This document shows positions 15,001 to 21,000 of a DNA stretch of 64,000 nt, piece after piece. The position numbers were made by a program. Source of the stretch: an uncultured Gemmatimonadales bacterium (GTDB lineage: Bacteria; Gemmatimonadota; Gemmatimonadetes; Longimicrobiales; RSA9); contig CAWCRS010000007.1 of assembly GCA_963798085.1 (NCBI GenBank), positions 1,760,001-1,824,000 of the forward strand, read 5' to 3'. The number at the start of each line of letters is the position of its first letter. The stretch's first letter is position 1.

Positions 15001-18000
15001 AGGCGCTCACCGCTGTCAGCGTGGCGCTGCTGACCGCCTACGACATGCTGAAGGCGGTGGATCGCGGCATGACCATCACGGACATCCGGCTGCTGCAGAA
15101 GAGCGGCGGACGGAGCGGTACATGGACGCGCGTCGTCGCCCCGGATGCGGTTGCCCCGCGCAGTCGCAAACGGCGCGGGTGAGGGTCAGCGCGAGGCCTT
15201 CACCACCAGCCGGTCACCCACGTGCAACACACTGTTAAGACGCAGTGCGTTCCACTCGAGCAGGTCCTGCGTGCGCACGCCGTAGTGGCGCGCAATCGCT
15301 GACAGCGTCTCGCCACGCTTCACCTTGTGCACGGTGGGCGTGACAGCCTTCGCCGAGGGTTTCCTGGGGCTGGAACTGCCGGGCCGCGACGCGATCTGCT
15401 CCGACGCCACCAGTCGGATGGAACCGCGCGGAATCCGCAGGCGCTGGCCCACGCGCAGCTGGTTGGCCCGCTTGATCCCGTTCGTCTCCTGCAACAGGCC
15501 CACACTCGTGCCGTACTGGTGCGCGATCGCGCCCAGGGTCTCACCCCGCTTCACCGTGTGCTCGAGAAAACGCACCCGCTGTTCCGGCGGGATGTTGGCG
15601 AATGCGGCTCGGAAGTCTTCCCCTGTGCCGGGCGGCAGATAGACGATCGTGCTGCGACCCGGCGGTGTCACCTGTTTCGGCAGCTGCGGATTCATGTCGA
15701 TGACTTCCTGCACAGACACGCCCGCGGCTCCGGCAATTACGCTGAGGTCGGTTGCGTCGGGGATGGTCACGGTATCCCTGGAAACGGGCTGCAACTGGAT
15801 CACATCGCCGAAGCCGAAGCGGTCGCGATTGCGCCCGATGATGGTGGCGGCGATCAGCTTGGGTACGTAATCCCGTGTTTCCCGCGGGAGCGCGGCGTGG
15901 ATACGCCAGAACAGGGAATCCGAGCCATCCGCGTTGGGGGCGCGTTTTGCGATTGCGCGATCCACGCGACCGGCGCCGCTGTTGTAAGCGGCGGCGGCCA
16001 GGTACCAGCTGTTGTAGCGGTCGTGCAGCTTCTCGAGGTGATTGAGTGCTGCATCCGTGGCCAGCTCGACGTTGCGGCGCTCGTCCAGGTATTCGGAAAC
16101 CTCGAGTCCCTCAATGCGGGCCGTGCCGGTCACGAACTGCCACATGCCCACCGCCTTGGCGCGTGAGCGCGCGACAGGCGAGAACCCGCTCTCGATCAGG
16201 GCGAGGTAGAGCAGCTCCTCGGGCAGGCCCCGGTCCCTCAACTTCTGCGTGATCAGGCCCTCGAAGCGCCCTTCGCGCGAGAGGTACGTCGCGAAATGGT
16301 CGCGCTCGGGTCCGGTGAAGATGTCGAGCCAGTACTGCACGCGTGGATTGATGACGAGGGGGATGCTGGTGCCCGACAGATCCAGGCCCTCAGGCGCCGC
16401 GGTGGTGCTCTCCGGTACCGAATCGCCGGGGGGCTCCGGGAACGGCGCCGGCTCCAGACCCGTCGGGTCCGAAATATCGACGTCGTCCACATCGAGCAGA
16501 GCGGGCGGCAGAATGACGGTCACTTCCGGCCGCGGTGGCAGGGGCTCGGAAGGCGCGTGTGCGCAGGCCGCCAGGACGGGCAGCATCGCCAGGTAATATG
16601 GAAACCGCATGAACCTCACCGGGTGACGAGGTAGTTGCCGAGCAGTCGATTCAACGCATGCAGCACGGCAAGCGCCGCGGCCCGCAGTGGTTCCTTCCCC
16701 ACAAGCACAGCGCCGAGGTACTTCTGGAAATCCGGCCCCGGGCGATAGAGCGACACTACCATGAGTTCCGCGTCGAACGCCCGGACCTGCTTCACACCGG
16801 CCAGCCTCACTCCCACGGGGCGGTCCGATACGCCATCAAGAGCTTCCAGAGCGGCCTGTGCCGCCGTCCTCAATTCGATGTTGATTCCCTTCTCACCGGT
16901 TGCCTCGCCTTCCGCGCGCTTCCCCTTCCACTCCAGGGCCACGCGCACACGGACGTGCATATCGGCCTCTTCGACGCGTTCCACGCCCTCGAAGCGAACC
17001 CGCTCGCGGTCTCGCTGATCGGCCCGGATCAGGGCCTCCACCCTGAGACCCTCGCCGGCAAGCCCCTCGGATCGGATCGCCGCCTGAGCGGCTTCCGTGA
17101 CCTCGGAGGCATTGGCCTGCGGCTGGCAGACCAGCCAGATGCAGTGCTCCTCGATAATGGCATGGTCGACGCCAGCCAGGGCCTCGAGTTTTTCGTGCAG
17201 CGCCGGGAGTAAACGCGTGTTCTGGGCCACCAGAGTCATTCGAATCTCGGGTTCCGTTCGACTGCGAGGAGACCGGGGAGGGAAGAGGCGGGACTACCCA
17301 CGTAAGCGAAGCGTCGACCGGCTGTCAAGCCAGGAACAGCCTGCTCCGTCACAGGTGGTAGTTCGGTGCCTCCCTCGTGATCGCGACGTCGTGCGGATGC
17401 GATTCCCGCAACCCGCCCAGCGTAATGGGCATGAAGCTCGGCCTCGACTGCAGCTCCTGGATCGTGCGGCAGCCCAGGTATCCCATGCCGCTGCGCAACC
17501 CGCCCACCAGCTGGAAAACGACGTCCGTCGCGGGCCCTTTGTACGGGACCCGCCCCTCGATGCCCTCCGGGACGAACTTTCTGTTTTCCTGCACTTCTTC
17601 CTGGAAGTATCGGTCGGCAGAGCCCTGTTCCATTGCTGACAGGGATCCCATGCCGCGAACCGTCTTGAATCGGCGCCCCTCGAGCAGGAAACTCTCGCCC
17701 GGGCTTTCCTCCGTTCCGGCCAGGAGAGAGCCGAGCATCACGGCCGCCGCCCCCGCCGCCAGCGACTTCACAATGTCGCCGGAATAGCGAACACCGCCGT
17801 CGGCAATGATGGGGATTGCGTTCTCCACCCCCTCCACCGCGTCCATGATGGCCGTGATCTGGGGCACACCGACTCCCGTTACCACCCGAGTGGTGCAAAT
17901 GCTCCCGGGCCCGATCCCGACCTTGACCGCGTTGGCCCCGCGCTCCTTCAGGGCCCGGGCGCCGCCGGCGGTCGCCACATTGCCGGCAATGATCTGCGCT

Positions 18001-21000
18001 TCCGGGAACCGCTCCCGCGTCCGGGCCAGAGCCGCCAGAACCCCGACGGAATGGCCGTGCGCCGTGTCTATGACCAGAACGTCGCAGCCTGCCGCCAGCA
18101 GGGCTTCGGCCCGCGCCAGGTCGTTGATGGAGGTGCCTATTGCCGCTCCCGTACGCAGGCGGCCGTGACTGTCCTTCGAGGCATTCGGAAACTGCCGCCG
18201 CTTGAAGATGTCCTTCACCGTGATCAGCCCGCGCAGGCGTCCACTCTCGTCGACGACCGGCAGCTTCTCAATGCGTTCCCGGTGCAGGATTCGTTCGGCC
18301 TCTTCCAGCAATGTGCCCACCGGCGTCGTGATCAGACCCTCCGAGGTCATGATTTCGTGGACAGGCCGGTCCATACGAGTCTCGAACTGTAGATCGCGAT
18401 TCGTCAGGATGCCGCGCAGGAAGCCGGCTTCATCGACAATGGGAACGCCGCTGATGGAAAACCGCTCCATCATGCGAAGGGCCTCATGGAGCGGACGATC
18501 GGGAGTAAGCGTGATGGGGTTGAGGATCATTCCGCTTTCCGAGCGCTTGACGCGATCGACCTCTTCGACCTGCTGGTCAATGCCCATGTTCTTGTGGATG
18601 ATTCCGAGTCCGCCTTCACGCGCAATGGCGATGGCCATGCGCGATTCTGTGACCGTGTCCATTGCCGCCGAGAGCAGCGGGATGCTCAACTCGATGGCCG
18701 CTGCGAGCCGGGTGCTGACGGATGTTTCGCGTGGATGCACCTCGGAGTAGGACGGGACGAGCAGCACATCGTCGAAGGTGAGGCCCTGAGGAACGAACCG
18801 GTTGGCGCGATCGGTCATATCCCTTTCCCGAAAACGAAAAACGCCCGCGGCCGGGGAGTTTCACTCCGCCAGGGCCAGCGGGCGCATCCTTGGACGCTCG
18901 CCTGTATCAGGTCTTCCATGCGGCAAGCTAGAGACGCCGGTCGGCAGGTGTCAAGCAGCGCAACTGTCGCCTGGATGCGCGCATCGGGTGGTTCAACTGG
19001 CGCGCGTCCAGCGGTCCAGAGTGCGGCGGATCGGGTTGGGCAGGAGGCGGCCCACGTCGCTCACGCGCTCCAGCAGGTAACCCAGTTCACGAGGGTCGCC
19101 GTCCCAATGCTCGAGCAGAAGATCCGGTCCGATGCCACCCAGCAGGCGGGTCAGCGCCATTCCCACCAGATACACGTCGTCGAACCAGCCGAGAAAGCCC
19201 AGGAAGTCCGGAATCAGATCGGCGGGCGTGAGCACATAGAAGAGCACGAACCCGAAGATCGCCTTGTCCAGCGTGGAAACGCGCGCGTCACGCACCAGGC
19301 GGAAGAGCAGTCGGATCAGACGCGGGAGATTGCGTATGAGTGCGAGCGCTACGCCGGTCGCATCGAGTCGGCGCCGTCGCCGCCGACGACCTGCGAAACG
19401 GCGTCTGTCGCGCACGTTACTCGCCCGGACGCGCGGGTTGCGCGCCGCCCGTCTTCTGCACTCCGGTTCCCGGTTCGCTCTGGCCTTCACCCAGAATCGT
19501 GCGACTGATTTCACGGCCGGCGTCGGCAACGCCCTGAAAGACACGCCGCGCGGTTCCCACCATGCCCACGGTGCCACTGATGACCTTCGGTGCCACGTTG
19601 CGCATGCGCATGCTGTCTTCGAGACGCTCGGCAAAGCGCTGCAGTCCGTCCGGCCGCGCGGCACGCGCGGCTGCGTATTTGCTCTCCAGGAATTCAATGT
19701 AATCCAGCACCTGGTAGACCTGCGCCTCCGGCAGGACGTTCAGCTTGCGCATGAGGCGCTCACGCAGGATGTCGTGCATGACTTTCGATCCACTGTTACC
19801 GAGCGAGCTTCGCCACTCGCTCCAAGTCGAAGAATAACGCCGCTGCCGCCAGCTGGAAACGCACCACCCGTGGCGAGGGATTCCACTACTACGCCCCGCC
19901 GGGACGGGCGGTTGCAGCAGTTCAGGCCCTCGCCTAACGTACCGTGCGCGCCGTCGAGTGTGCTCGTACCTGTGCCGCGCGGGCTGATGCACCCTCTCAC
20001 GGAGGATTTCAGACACATGCCTTTTCTGCCGCTGCGGCAAGTCGTTCTGCCCGACGCTACGGAGCACCTGTACGAGACATGGCTTCAGGAACTGGCGCGA
20101 CGCCTTGAGCGTCCGGACTGCGATCGCAACGAGTTGTGCCGCGAACTCCTCACGGACCTGTACTACCCCGAACTGCGGGATCGACCGATGGCGTCGCTTT
20201 CCTCGACCTCGCAGCTGGCGCTGGCGCAGATGGATCCGCGCAATGTCACGCTGGAATCCGAATATTACGCCGACATCGACGCCGCGCGCTTCGCACCGGT
20301 CAAGCCGCTGCTCTGGCTATGGGAGATGTTCGACAAGAGTCCGGCAGGCGAGAACGTCGAGCTGGGTGTGCGCTTCCGGCGCGTGCTGGCGCATCACATC
20401 TTCCGCCGCTGCGGCCGCAACTTCAAATGCTTCCAGTTCGTGAAGTTTTCCTTCGGCTACAACATCGAGGCAGGCGACGACGTGGTGATCCACCGCTACG
20501 TCCTGCTCAATGATCGCGGCGGAATCGTGCTCGGCGATCGCTCATCGGTAGCGGATTACGGCAACGTCTATTCCCACACCCACGACCTGGGCGACCAGCG
20601 CGTTGTGTCCTCGCCTGTCACCACGCTCGAAGAAGGCACACGTCTCACCTATCACGCCACGCTCCTCGCCGGCAACCGCATGGAACGCGACTCCATGCTG
20701 GGTGCCATGGCCGTGGCGACGAAGGACGTGCCCGCGGGCTACGTCGCGGTGGGCATCCCCGCTGTACCGAAGATCCAGAAGCCCACGCCGGAAGCCCGGG
20801 CGAAACTGCCTGCCACGAGCGACCCGCTCGCGGGCCTGCAGGACGATGCGGCGGCCCGCACGTAGGTCGCGCCGTCAGCCCTCCTTCTCTTCGTACTCGT
20901 CTTTCAGGCGAGCGACCACGGCCGGGTCTGCTAACGTCGTGGTATCGCCCAGCGTGCGTCCCTCCGCGATGTCGCGCAGCAGTCGCCGCATGATCTTGCC

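Follow-up and report, generated by a model that had tools for sequence, protein, structure and literature searches.

A fixed promoter-ATG geometry at guaB in the class Gemmatimonadetes: a candidate GTP switch acting by loss of the start codon

Introduction

Why should the promoter of guaB place an ATG at the very point where transcription is expected to begin, and why should the short reading frame opened there run through a hairpin and stop on the guaB start codon? The question bears on leaderless mRNAs, which are usually credited with little room for gene-specific control. A 2022 review considers control of leaderless mRNAs by riboswitches unlikely and names proteins or small RNAs instead (PMC9031893).

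From comparison of guaB loci we propose that the gene probably carries a repressor-free feedback switch, in which the level of GTP, or the GTP:ATP ratio, would act through the choice of transcription start site. If true, guaB, encoding the enzyme that takes the first committed step towards GTP, would have a feedback switch without a regulatory protein throughout the class, which suggests how this large and poorly studied group of soil and sediment bacteria keeps GTP steady. Leaderless mRNAs would in that case gain a minimal metabolite switch of about 15 promoter bases.

Results and Discussion

The guaB locus

The window, that is, the whole stretch of 64,000 nucleotides that was analysed, carries guaB on the reverse strand (17349..18818), as it does all the features described here. 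The product of 489 aa is an IMP dehydrogenase, which scores 621 bits with TIGR01302 (cut-off 481.5). Upstream of the gene lie a -35 box TTGACA (18949..18954), the TTGAC of which recurs in almost every locus of the order, and, after a spacer of 18 nt, a -10 box TAGCTT (18925..18930) of the form TANNNT. A pyrimidine-rich gap (18920..18924; positions 1–5 after the -10 box) leads to the sequence ATGG (18916..18919) with the two predicted rival starts, namely the A at position 6, which would keep the AUG, and the two Gs at positions 8–9, which would lose it. The promoter was missed by a strict sigma-70 scan, its -10 box matching at 3 of 6 positions only; the putative assignment rests on conservation of the elements among relatives.

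The ATG opens a leaderless upstream ORF (uORF; 18815..18919) in the -1 frame, the TGA of which overlaps the guaB ATG at 18818 (ATGA). Within the uORF lies a GC-rich, terminator- or pause-like hairpin with the base GCCCGC/GCGGGC (18842..18884), directly followed by the U-rich tail UUUUUCGUUUU (18831..18841). Ahead of the guaB start there is a purine-rich stretch (18820..18829), weakly similar to a Shine-Dalgarno site, the pairing of which with the anti-Shine-Dalgarno motif varies widely between loci. Both coordinates and folding agree with the preliminary description of this locus, which had reported an ORF of 34 codons running through a GC hairpin and stopping on the guaB start: hairpin and tail together reach -31.5 kcal/mol (z -4.1), a value equalled by 1 of 200 shuffled sequences. 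A search of NCBIfam with the uORF peptide gave no match.

Promoter geometry across the class

We scored 140 guaB loci across the class and 108 within the order. In the class scan, for which a TANNNT -10 box was a precondition, the ATG was located exactly 5 nt past the box in 133 of the 140 loci, and no other distance was encountered. In these 133 loci the spacer measures 18 nt (76 loci), 17 nt (55), 16 nt (one) or 19 nt (one); since the gap stays at 5 nt with a spacer of either 17 or 18 nt, it is anchored to the -10 box. The last base of the gap is C or T in 115 of the 133 loci and its first three bases are YYY or YYR in 95. When the gap (4–8 nt) and the base after the ATG were left unconstrained, a gap of 5 was found in 93/104 guaB loci versus 5/15 chance matches outside guaB. 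Within the order the promoter-ATG layout is present in 104/108 loci, or in 61 of 63 genera when one locus per genus is taken. The guaB loci are related by descent, and their counts are therefore not independent.

The same ATG opens a uORF in 102 of the 133 loci and guaB itself in 31, the two forms interchanging around one geometry. It is followed by G in 117 loci (89/102 uORFs and 28/31 leaderless guaB genes). A6 and G8(G9), two possible starts that differ in the initiating NTP, occur together in 133/140 loci, with the triplets C-A-T centred at position 6 and T-G-G centred at position 8; the second G is missing in 16/133. Three loci (L089, L127 and L130) retain the promoter and lack the ATG, and in L089 the hairpin is still present.

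These counts sharpen the preliminary description. The ATG does follow the -10 box, but the range of 5–7 nt given for it contracts to the single value of 5 in all 133 loci that have the ATG; the layout is real, but 20 of 28 loci understated its extent. Enrichment of G after the ATG, likewise reported earlier, is borne out by comparison with the leaderless genes dusB and hisS, where G follows in 7/53. Retention of ATGG without conservation of the peptide was also seen here, the G being held even in uORFs with variable peptides, and leaderless guaB, reported from 2 loci in the first survey, was found in 31.

A possible choice between two starts

In E. coli the strongest starts lie at positions 7–8, and initiation is drawn to YRY or YRR triplets centred on them (PMC12641261); the modal start lies downstream of position 6 and is shifted downstream by a CCT discriminator (PMC5730371). 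With A at the marginal position 6 and GG at the favoured positions 8–9, high GTP should therefore move the start to G and delete the AUG.

We propose that RNA polymerase may start either at the A of the ATG or two bases further on, at a G, in which case the first two nucleotides of the RNA would both be G. At low GTP the start at A would yield a message that begins with AUG and is loaded leaderlessly by the ribosome. In the uORF form the ribosome would follow the polymerase across the hairpin and then re-initiate on guaB; in the leaderless form it would already be translating guaB. At high GTP the start at G would remove the AUG and leave the leader naked, so that hairpin and tail could end transcription, either intrinsically or with Rho, while in leaderless forms devoid of the hairpin the RNA would simply be untranslatable. 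In the window, leaders beginning at the A and at the G differ little in their folding (-49.8 vs -50.0 kcal/mol); what distinguishes them is the AUG. The sign of the proposed switch is fixed by the 31 loci in which the ATG is the start of guaB itself, where presence of the AUG means ON. An inhibitory uORF, for which the AUG would mean OFF, was also considered and was rejected on the basis of the same loci.

The preliminary description had likewise suggested a GTP-driven shift from A to G, and the comparative geometry fits this idea more closely than was first apparent. As for the ATGA coupling, to which the role of effector had been assigned, the overlap exists, but the view was too narrow. Among 93 uORFs of the order, 71 are in the -1 frame, 62 end in ATGA and 86 have 25–55 codons, while reading past the hairpin is found in 80/87 order loci; the stop precedes the hairpin end in 7/93. 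Over 90 nt the uORF frame is free of stops in 78/87 loci, compared with 56 and 59 for the other two frames. Translation across the hairpin thus appears to be better conserved than the ATGA overlap.

Among transcripts, the leaderless locus L119 occurs in 17 RNA runs (16 with all sampled words), as assembled contigs only; the contigs of four runs span the promoter in one piece and record no ends or differences.

Hairpin, tail and the possibility of attenuation

The hairpin was recognised by motif in 106/133 loci, with a median of -31 kcal/mol that is biased by this selection; pair counts at the stem base are circular at five motif positions and were excluded as evidence of covariation. A U-tract is present in the window and in 12/12 Binatia-type loci, the median for the order being about 2 T in 8 nt and the tails of family f3 having 0–4 T in 8 nt. 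As most tails are U-poor, the OFF step of the proposed switch is uncertain. In family f3 the guaB starts also display strong Shine-Dalgarno pairing (mean -9.6 kcal/mol), and with a U-poor tail as well, translation of the G-start RNA might persist unless Rho intervened. Across 1412 hairpins genome-wide, no terminator-tail consensus was found behind the genes of genome G000. In all 14 loci of family f5 the ATG is the start of guaB, and 9 of them hold the hairpin inside an N-terminal extension. Short leaderless guaB genes without a hairpin (e.g., L111, L117, L119, L126, L129 and L131) keep both the gap of 5 and ATGG. Pairing of the tail with the 5' end or with the guaB start was rejected as the main switch: it occurs in single loci, conservation does not extend to its partner, and the tail is retained where the downstream start is missing.

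A leader ORF overlapping a terminator-like hairpin recalls pyrBI of E. coli, where UTP is sensed by pausing at U tracts, the leader is Shine-Dalgarno-led, and translation of the leader ORF covers the terminator hairpin irrespective of the peptide sequence. By analogy, transcription of guaB could start at a fixed A, and at low GTP the polymerase could pause either on the GG close to the start or on pyrimidine-G steps just past the hairpin, letting the leaderless ribosome catch up and block the terminator, whereas at high GTP it would outrun the ribosome and terminate. The uORF does cross a terminator-like hairpin, the U-tracts of Binatia are clear, and G residues that follow pyrimidines 6–8 nt behind the stem are conserved. 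Nonetheless, we regard attenuation of this kind as unlikely, because no G-rich tract follows the start (nt 5–24 contain 0.24 G and 0.31 A), and because it leaves unexplained both the fixed gap of 5 nt and the retention of ATGG in leaderless guaB genes that have no hairpin. Unlike pyrBI, guaB keeps its geometry where the hairpin is missing, and its leader is leaderless.

Comparison with other leaderless genes

Start-site choice responding to GTP should also be weighed against the absence of any nucleotide regulation, whereby an ancestral leaderless start would set constant expression, the uORF would merely carry ribosomes over the hairpin, and gap and G would be inherited or tune the yield. Leaderless genes are indeed common in these genomes, and the guaB loci share descent. 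Genome-wide, G000 has 26, 33, 38 and 24 leaderless candidates at gaps 5, 6, 7 and 8, against 4, 10, 10 and 3 for an internal-ATG control. Gap-5 genes with no connection to purines are among them, so that a gap of 5 is by itself no sign of regulation; G follows the ATG in 4 of the 26. On the other hand, leaderless orthologues other than guaB drift over gaps of 5–9 in the same genomes. For dusB (28 of 30 loci) gaps of 5, 6, 7 and 9 occurred 3, 20, 4 and 1 times, and for hisS (25 of 30) gaps of 6, 7 and 8 occurred 4, 14 and 7 times, so that these controls centre on A7–A8 and have a gap of 5 in 3/53. At guaB, in turn, the gap of 5 recurs in separate clades of a tree that was quick, with 100 columns and 65 of 107 inner branches open. 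A uORF with a hairpin would moreover be a costly route to constitutive expression, which we hold to be improbable here. In G000, guaA and pyrG sit behind other genes and have no comparable leader.

Promoters of the B. subtilis style that start with A fire more as ATP rises and GTP falls. Control of promoter strength by the initiating nucleotide, with the AUG never lost, would act in the same direction at guaB, and ATP sensitivity is conceivable for an A start in a marginal position; such control needs no AUG where transcription begins, no following G and no frame across the hairpin, three features that are conserved, and it is very improbable. Least probable of all is a riboswitch-like RNA binding a ligand or protein around the hairpin and its tail, with the uORF secondary: the stem base and the G(C/T)AT tail are conserved across reading frames and common to Binatia, but the loop and the upper part of the stem are free to vary, many leaderless forms have no hairpin, and no Rfam model reached its gathering score in 20 loci (the window and 20 short loci gave nothing below E 0.35). 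An IMPDH RNA motif was reportedly proposed by Weinberg in 2017, and does not appear in the main text of that paper.

Relation to known nucleotide-sensing systems

The systems closest to the proposed start-site switch appear to be pyrC of E. coli and IMD2 of yeast. At pyrC and pyrD of E. coli and Salmonella, two starts 2 nt apart are chosen by NTP pools, and the output is translational, with no repressor, as is predicted for guaB. In those pyrimidine genes CTP is sensed against GTP, and a hairpin in the longer RNA covers the Shine-Dalgarno site. The guaB target is instead the GTP branch; in the window no 5' hairpin sequesters the Shine-Dalgarno site in the longer RNA alone, and the RNA is leaderless, its shorter form being the one that would lose the start codon. 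Yeast IMD2 encodes the same enzyme and obeys the same logic of G versus A starts that is predicted here: high GTP gives G starts and prematurely terminated RNA, and low GTP a productive A start (PMC3325174). IMD2, however, involves long-distance scanning by Pol II and an A start downstream of the terminator, whereas at guaB a distance of 2 nt separates the predicted starts, the A start comes first, upstream of the G start, and read-through would be decided by translation. If true, guaB would be a bacterial counterpart of IMD2.

In mycobacteria, leaderless polycysteine short ORFs at the 5' end of the RNA control a downstream gene (bioRxiv 10.1101/834739). The guaB uORFs share this position, but those amino-acid sensors have a conserved codon run, whereas among guaB uORF peptides no conserved single-codon run was found, leaders differing freely and frames varying, and it is the presence of the AUG that is predicted to exert control. 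Start switching is combined with reiterative transcription at codBA and upp of E. coli and pyrG of B. subtilis (PMC6245113, PMC4448216). NTPs would likewise be sensed in the first transcribed bases of guaB, but those genes require a homopolymer run at the start; no run of at least 3 was found at guaB, where ATGG(A) is followed by mixed, A-rich bases.

The sequence rule of a -10 box, 5 nt and ATGG lends itself to searches at further genes and to the construction of reporters. Maps of 5' ends that merge starts 2 nt apart would overlook such a switch.

Occurrence outside the class

The design recurs in Binatia and patchily elsewhere. In metagenome scans with a free gap, a gap of 5 was found in 110/118 guaB loci, including 30/37 outside the class, the controls for leaderless gaps being drawn from this class only. 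Two loci titled Acidimicrobiia (L184) and Methylomirabilota (L250) fall inside the Gemmatimonadales branch of the tree and were not counted as independent.

With confidence in the whole slightly short of even, we tentatively suggest a broader reading, namely a GTP sensor that recurs among bacteria and works by having the polymerase itself delete the start codon, a shift of 2 nt making a leaderless mRNA untranslatable. Such a sensor would be fixed in the class Gemmatimonadetes, wired to guaB directly or via a uORF to an attenuator, and Binatia, some Acidobacteriota and several further lineages would have gained or retained it separately; purA may carry a sister switch in its start region, so that both IMP branches would be balanced without repressor or riboswitch.

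Beyond the class the gap-5 rule is not general. The uORF layout was found in 0/30 loci from the phylum of G343, where one leaderless locus with a gap of 5 is doubtful, and among 30 loci from the phylum of G344 only in G344 itself. The guaB gene of D. deserti is leaderless with a gap of 7 nt. In a drawn sample of 30 loci from the phylum of G424, all four leaderless matches have gaps of 6, 6, 6 and 7, and one further locus, recognised by eye, has a gap of 5 behind a CATAAT box. In the class of G425, 2 of 27 loci are leaderless as judged by eye, both with a gap of 5.

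The guaB leader and its conservation

The gene starting at position 18818 of the window (minus strand) encodes an IMP dehydrogenase, GuaB (TIGR01302, 621 bits against a cut-off of 481.5). Its promoter was absent from the list of a strict promoter scanner, and we therefore infer it from conservation: a -35 box (TTGACA, 18954–18949, minus strand), an 18-nt spacer and a -10 box (TAGCTT, 18930–18925, minus strand) are followed by 5 nt and ATGG. As read from the sequence, the ATG at 18919 opens a 34-codon upstream ORF (uORF), the TGA of which overlaps the guaB ATG; its peptide matched no NCBIfam family. 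The uORF crosses a hairpin (18884–18842, minus strand; -31.5 kcal/mol, z -4.1) with UUUUUCGUUUU directly behind it. The small membrane-protein-like gene upstream (18993–19325, minus strand), which had no NCBIfam match and is presumably DUF1232/YkvA-like, has its 3' end 38 nt before the -35 box and shows conserved synteny at many class loci.

The order yielded 201 genomes in which guaB was located, and the phylum 151. From these, a subset of 149 loci was taken (30 top-scoring and 119 picked to spread over genera), and a script selected the best pair of -35 and -10 boxes within 420 nt and then the first ATG 3–9 nt downstream. The name of the class (families f1–f9) comes from titled records with the same leader that cluster with these guaB loci. 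As the preliminary description had proposed from a smaller set, the layout is conserved: 133 of the 140 scored class loci carry the promoter-ATG, and the gap between -10 box and ATG is exactly 5 nt in all of them. The layout is also present in L087, which the anchor missed, and in L125, with a CAAATT box; it is missing in six loci (L035, L089, L102, L105, L127 and L130) and in all eight guaB loci of other classes (f10–f12). At the order level it occurs in 104 of 108 loci and, with one locus per genus, in 61 of 63 genera. Both 18-nt (76 of the 133 loci) and 17-nt spacers (55 loci) occur, and the 5-nt distance is therefore tied to the -10 box. Some loci come from unpublished genomes, on which no claim rests: three guaB loci from G144, G153 and G078, control as well as purA loci from G002 and G030, one further purA locus from G335 and one Acidobacteriota-phylum locus from G370.

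The ATG is used in two ways. It opens a uORF in 102 class loci, 93 of them in the order, and lies in the guaB frame, as the start of a leaderless guaB, in 31, including all 14 of family f5. Among the 93 order uORFs, 71 are in the -1 frame and 86 are 25–55 codons long. Termination on an ATGA overlapping the guaB start, part of the arrangement as first described, is common (62/93) but optional, and is not the constant feature. Where a hairpin was located in the order, the uORF extends beyond it in 80 of 87 loci, and 90 nt are stop-free in the uORF frame in 78/87, versus 56 and 59 in the other two frames. The same hairpin is kept within an N-terminal extension of ~40 codons in 9 of the 14 f5 loci, whereas the short leaderless forms have none. 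Since the uORF and leaderless forms interchange, what stays constant is that the predicted 5' end carries an AUG, the presence of which gives GuaB. This regulatory layout of guaB is genuine, spans the class and is under very tight constraint. In L112–L124 (f5) the apparent GuaB extension encodes the RNA hairpin, and annotations with a later start would skip the true start.

Comparison with other leaderless genes

Leaderless candidates of genome G000 were taken from our own gene calls. Gaps of 5, 6, 7 and 8 nt occurred in 26, 33, 38 and 24 candidates, respectively, against 4, 10, 10 and 3 expected from internal ATGs; G followed the ATG in 4 of the 26 gap-5 candidates, and its share over all candidate starts was 28%. 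Within the same order, the housekeeping genes dusB (L151–L180) and hisS (L300–L329) are predicted to be leaderless in 28 and 25 of 30 genomes, respectively, indicating that leaderless expression is probably widespread in this group. With the ATG at gap 6–7 retained where a locus had two candidates, the gaps were 5 (3 loci), 6 (20), 7 (4) and 9 (1) for dusB and 6 (4), 7 (14) and 8 (7) for hisS. The gap likewise drifts inside orthologue groups of guaB-neighbour genes in the sampled loci; only guaB is fixed at 5. The prevalence of G behind the ATG noted earlier was borne out, at 117 of 133 guaB loci (uORF 89/102, leaderless 28/31) versus 7 of 53 dusB and hisS loci. Because kinship inflates any formal test, weight is put on the contrast between guaB and these other genes over the same set of families.

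A predicted GTP-dependent start switch

In E. coli, according to the accessible part of one study, the modal start lies 7 bp past the -10 box, so that position 6 is upstream of the mode, and a CCT discriminator shifts the start downstream (PMC5730371). Starts at 7–8 are strongest and YRY or YRR triplets attract the start, as stated in the available sections of another (PMC12641261). The dusB and hisS gaps suggest a similar geometry in this order, with A at 7–8. At gap 5 the start codon has its A on position 6, flanked as C-A-T, and its G on position 8, within T-G-G; the 5-nt gap itself is pyrimidine-rich at the guaB loci. From the E. coli rules we infer that gap 5 would matter for start choice. 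Starting at G8 would need GTP for the first two nucleotides and would yield an RNA without the AUG; at gaps 6–7 the rival G would lie at 9–10 and A would prevail. We consider it probable that a GTP-dependent choice between A6 and G8 sets the presence of the AUG, translation from which would carry expression over the hairpin. Judged from sequence, the layout is most likely a GTP feedback switch, a new output of a known sensing principle.

The silencing of the AUG-less RNA is the least supported link of this model. The hairpin resembles an intrinsic terminator in the window and in Binatia, but in most of the order its tail holds ~2 T per 8 nt and is instead a conserved, Y-G-rich stretch that closes with G(C/T)AT; in family f3, strong Shine-Dalgarno sites precede guaB. 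In these cases silencing would require a pause and Rho, or a weak terminator. G000 has two rho-like genes (C2 167981–169219 and C3 918158–919267), one over and the other just under the family cut-off. The G(C/T)AT tail, 7–10 nt past the stem (e.g. L008, L112 and L186), is conserved across reading frames; it is common to class guaB leaders and Binatia and missing from the window.

A fixed start combined with GTP-sensitive pausing is a lesser possibility. Somewhat less plausible is a layout that is inherited and unregulated, and it is improbable that the initiating nucleotide acts by setting promoter strength. A ligand-binding RNA, for which there was no Rfam match, is the most doubtful of these explanations.

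In the accessible parts of the open-access literature, subscription papers aside, there was no report of a start shift deleting a leaderless start codon or of this guaB leader. The supplement of one study reportedly may describe an IMPDH-linked motif. Neither the layout nor such a shift is described in the available portions of PMC9031893, PMC6212727, PMC4448216, PMC5314773, PMC3847290, PMC13328217 and PMC6245113. The predicted switch would resemble in its working the start switching of pyrC/pyrD, from which it differs in effector, and yeast IMD2, where, in the part of the source available, G starts are terminated and, at low GTP, an A start gives productive RNA (PMC3325174). By the accessible part of bioRxiv 10.1101/834739, it does not belong to the amino-acid leader attenuators.

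Distribution outside the class

A GTDB scan that left the gap (4–8) and the next base free returned at least 119 stretches. Among the matches listed, 104 were guaB, 93 of them at gap 5, versus 5 of 15 non-guaB chance hits. These matches included 12 records titled Binatia or delta-proteobacteria, forming one clade, all of which have ATGG and a uORF, share the stem base of the class and carry a true U-tract. Three Acidobacteriota among them have ATGC, a 26-codon uORF and ATGA. When metagenomes were scanned for short leaderless guaB, at least 120 stretches were returned; among the matches listed, 118 were guaB, 110 of them at gap 5 and 97 of those with G. By tree or identity 37 lay outside the class, with gap 5 in 30 and G in 19 of these; in a quick tree of low resolution, the gap-5 sequences were spread over several distinct clades. 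This spread is weaker than the class result because those lineages provide no leaderless-gap background. In the drawn samples of outside lineages the layout was only patchy, and four leaderless hits in the phylum of G424 have gaps of 6–7. The guaB of D. deserti is leaderless, with a start mapped 7 nt past its box, according to the available part of PMC4007540.

The guaB genes and leaders of L184 and L250, titled Acidimicrobiia and Methylomirabilota, cluster within Gemmatimonadales; these contigs are either mislabelled or misbinned, or were transferred. Four further guaB loci (L215, L244, L252 and L287; three titled Lachnospiraceae or Acetatifactor) share a conserved TTGACA/TAAACT promoter in which ATGGAA follows the -10 box after just 1 nt and a 2-codon ORF opens at gap 7, a start-region design different from the gap-5 layout.

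Leaders of other genes

Among 54 purA loci (L330 and L334–L386; in G000, C6 near 17500–17620, minus strand), a TTG promoter lies within 220 nt in 30, of which 19 carry AGG(A) 6–7 nt past the -10 box. Many purA leaders form a hairpin with a U-tract soon after the start (eight by script, more by eye); in G000 and L364 an A-run precedes the hairpin in place of the AGG(A) start region. The purA leader thereby resembles an ATP/GTP attenuator that needs no repressor, of a sort not yet described, on the second of the two branches leading from IMP. The guaB layout may recur ahead of a DEAD-box helicase-like gene of G000 (C3 50209, minus strand), where a -10 box is followed by 5 nt, ATGG opening a uORF of 11 codons, and a hairpin that has a T-run.
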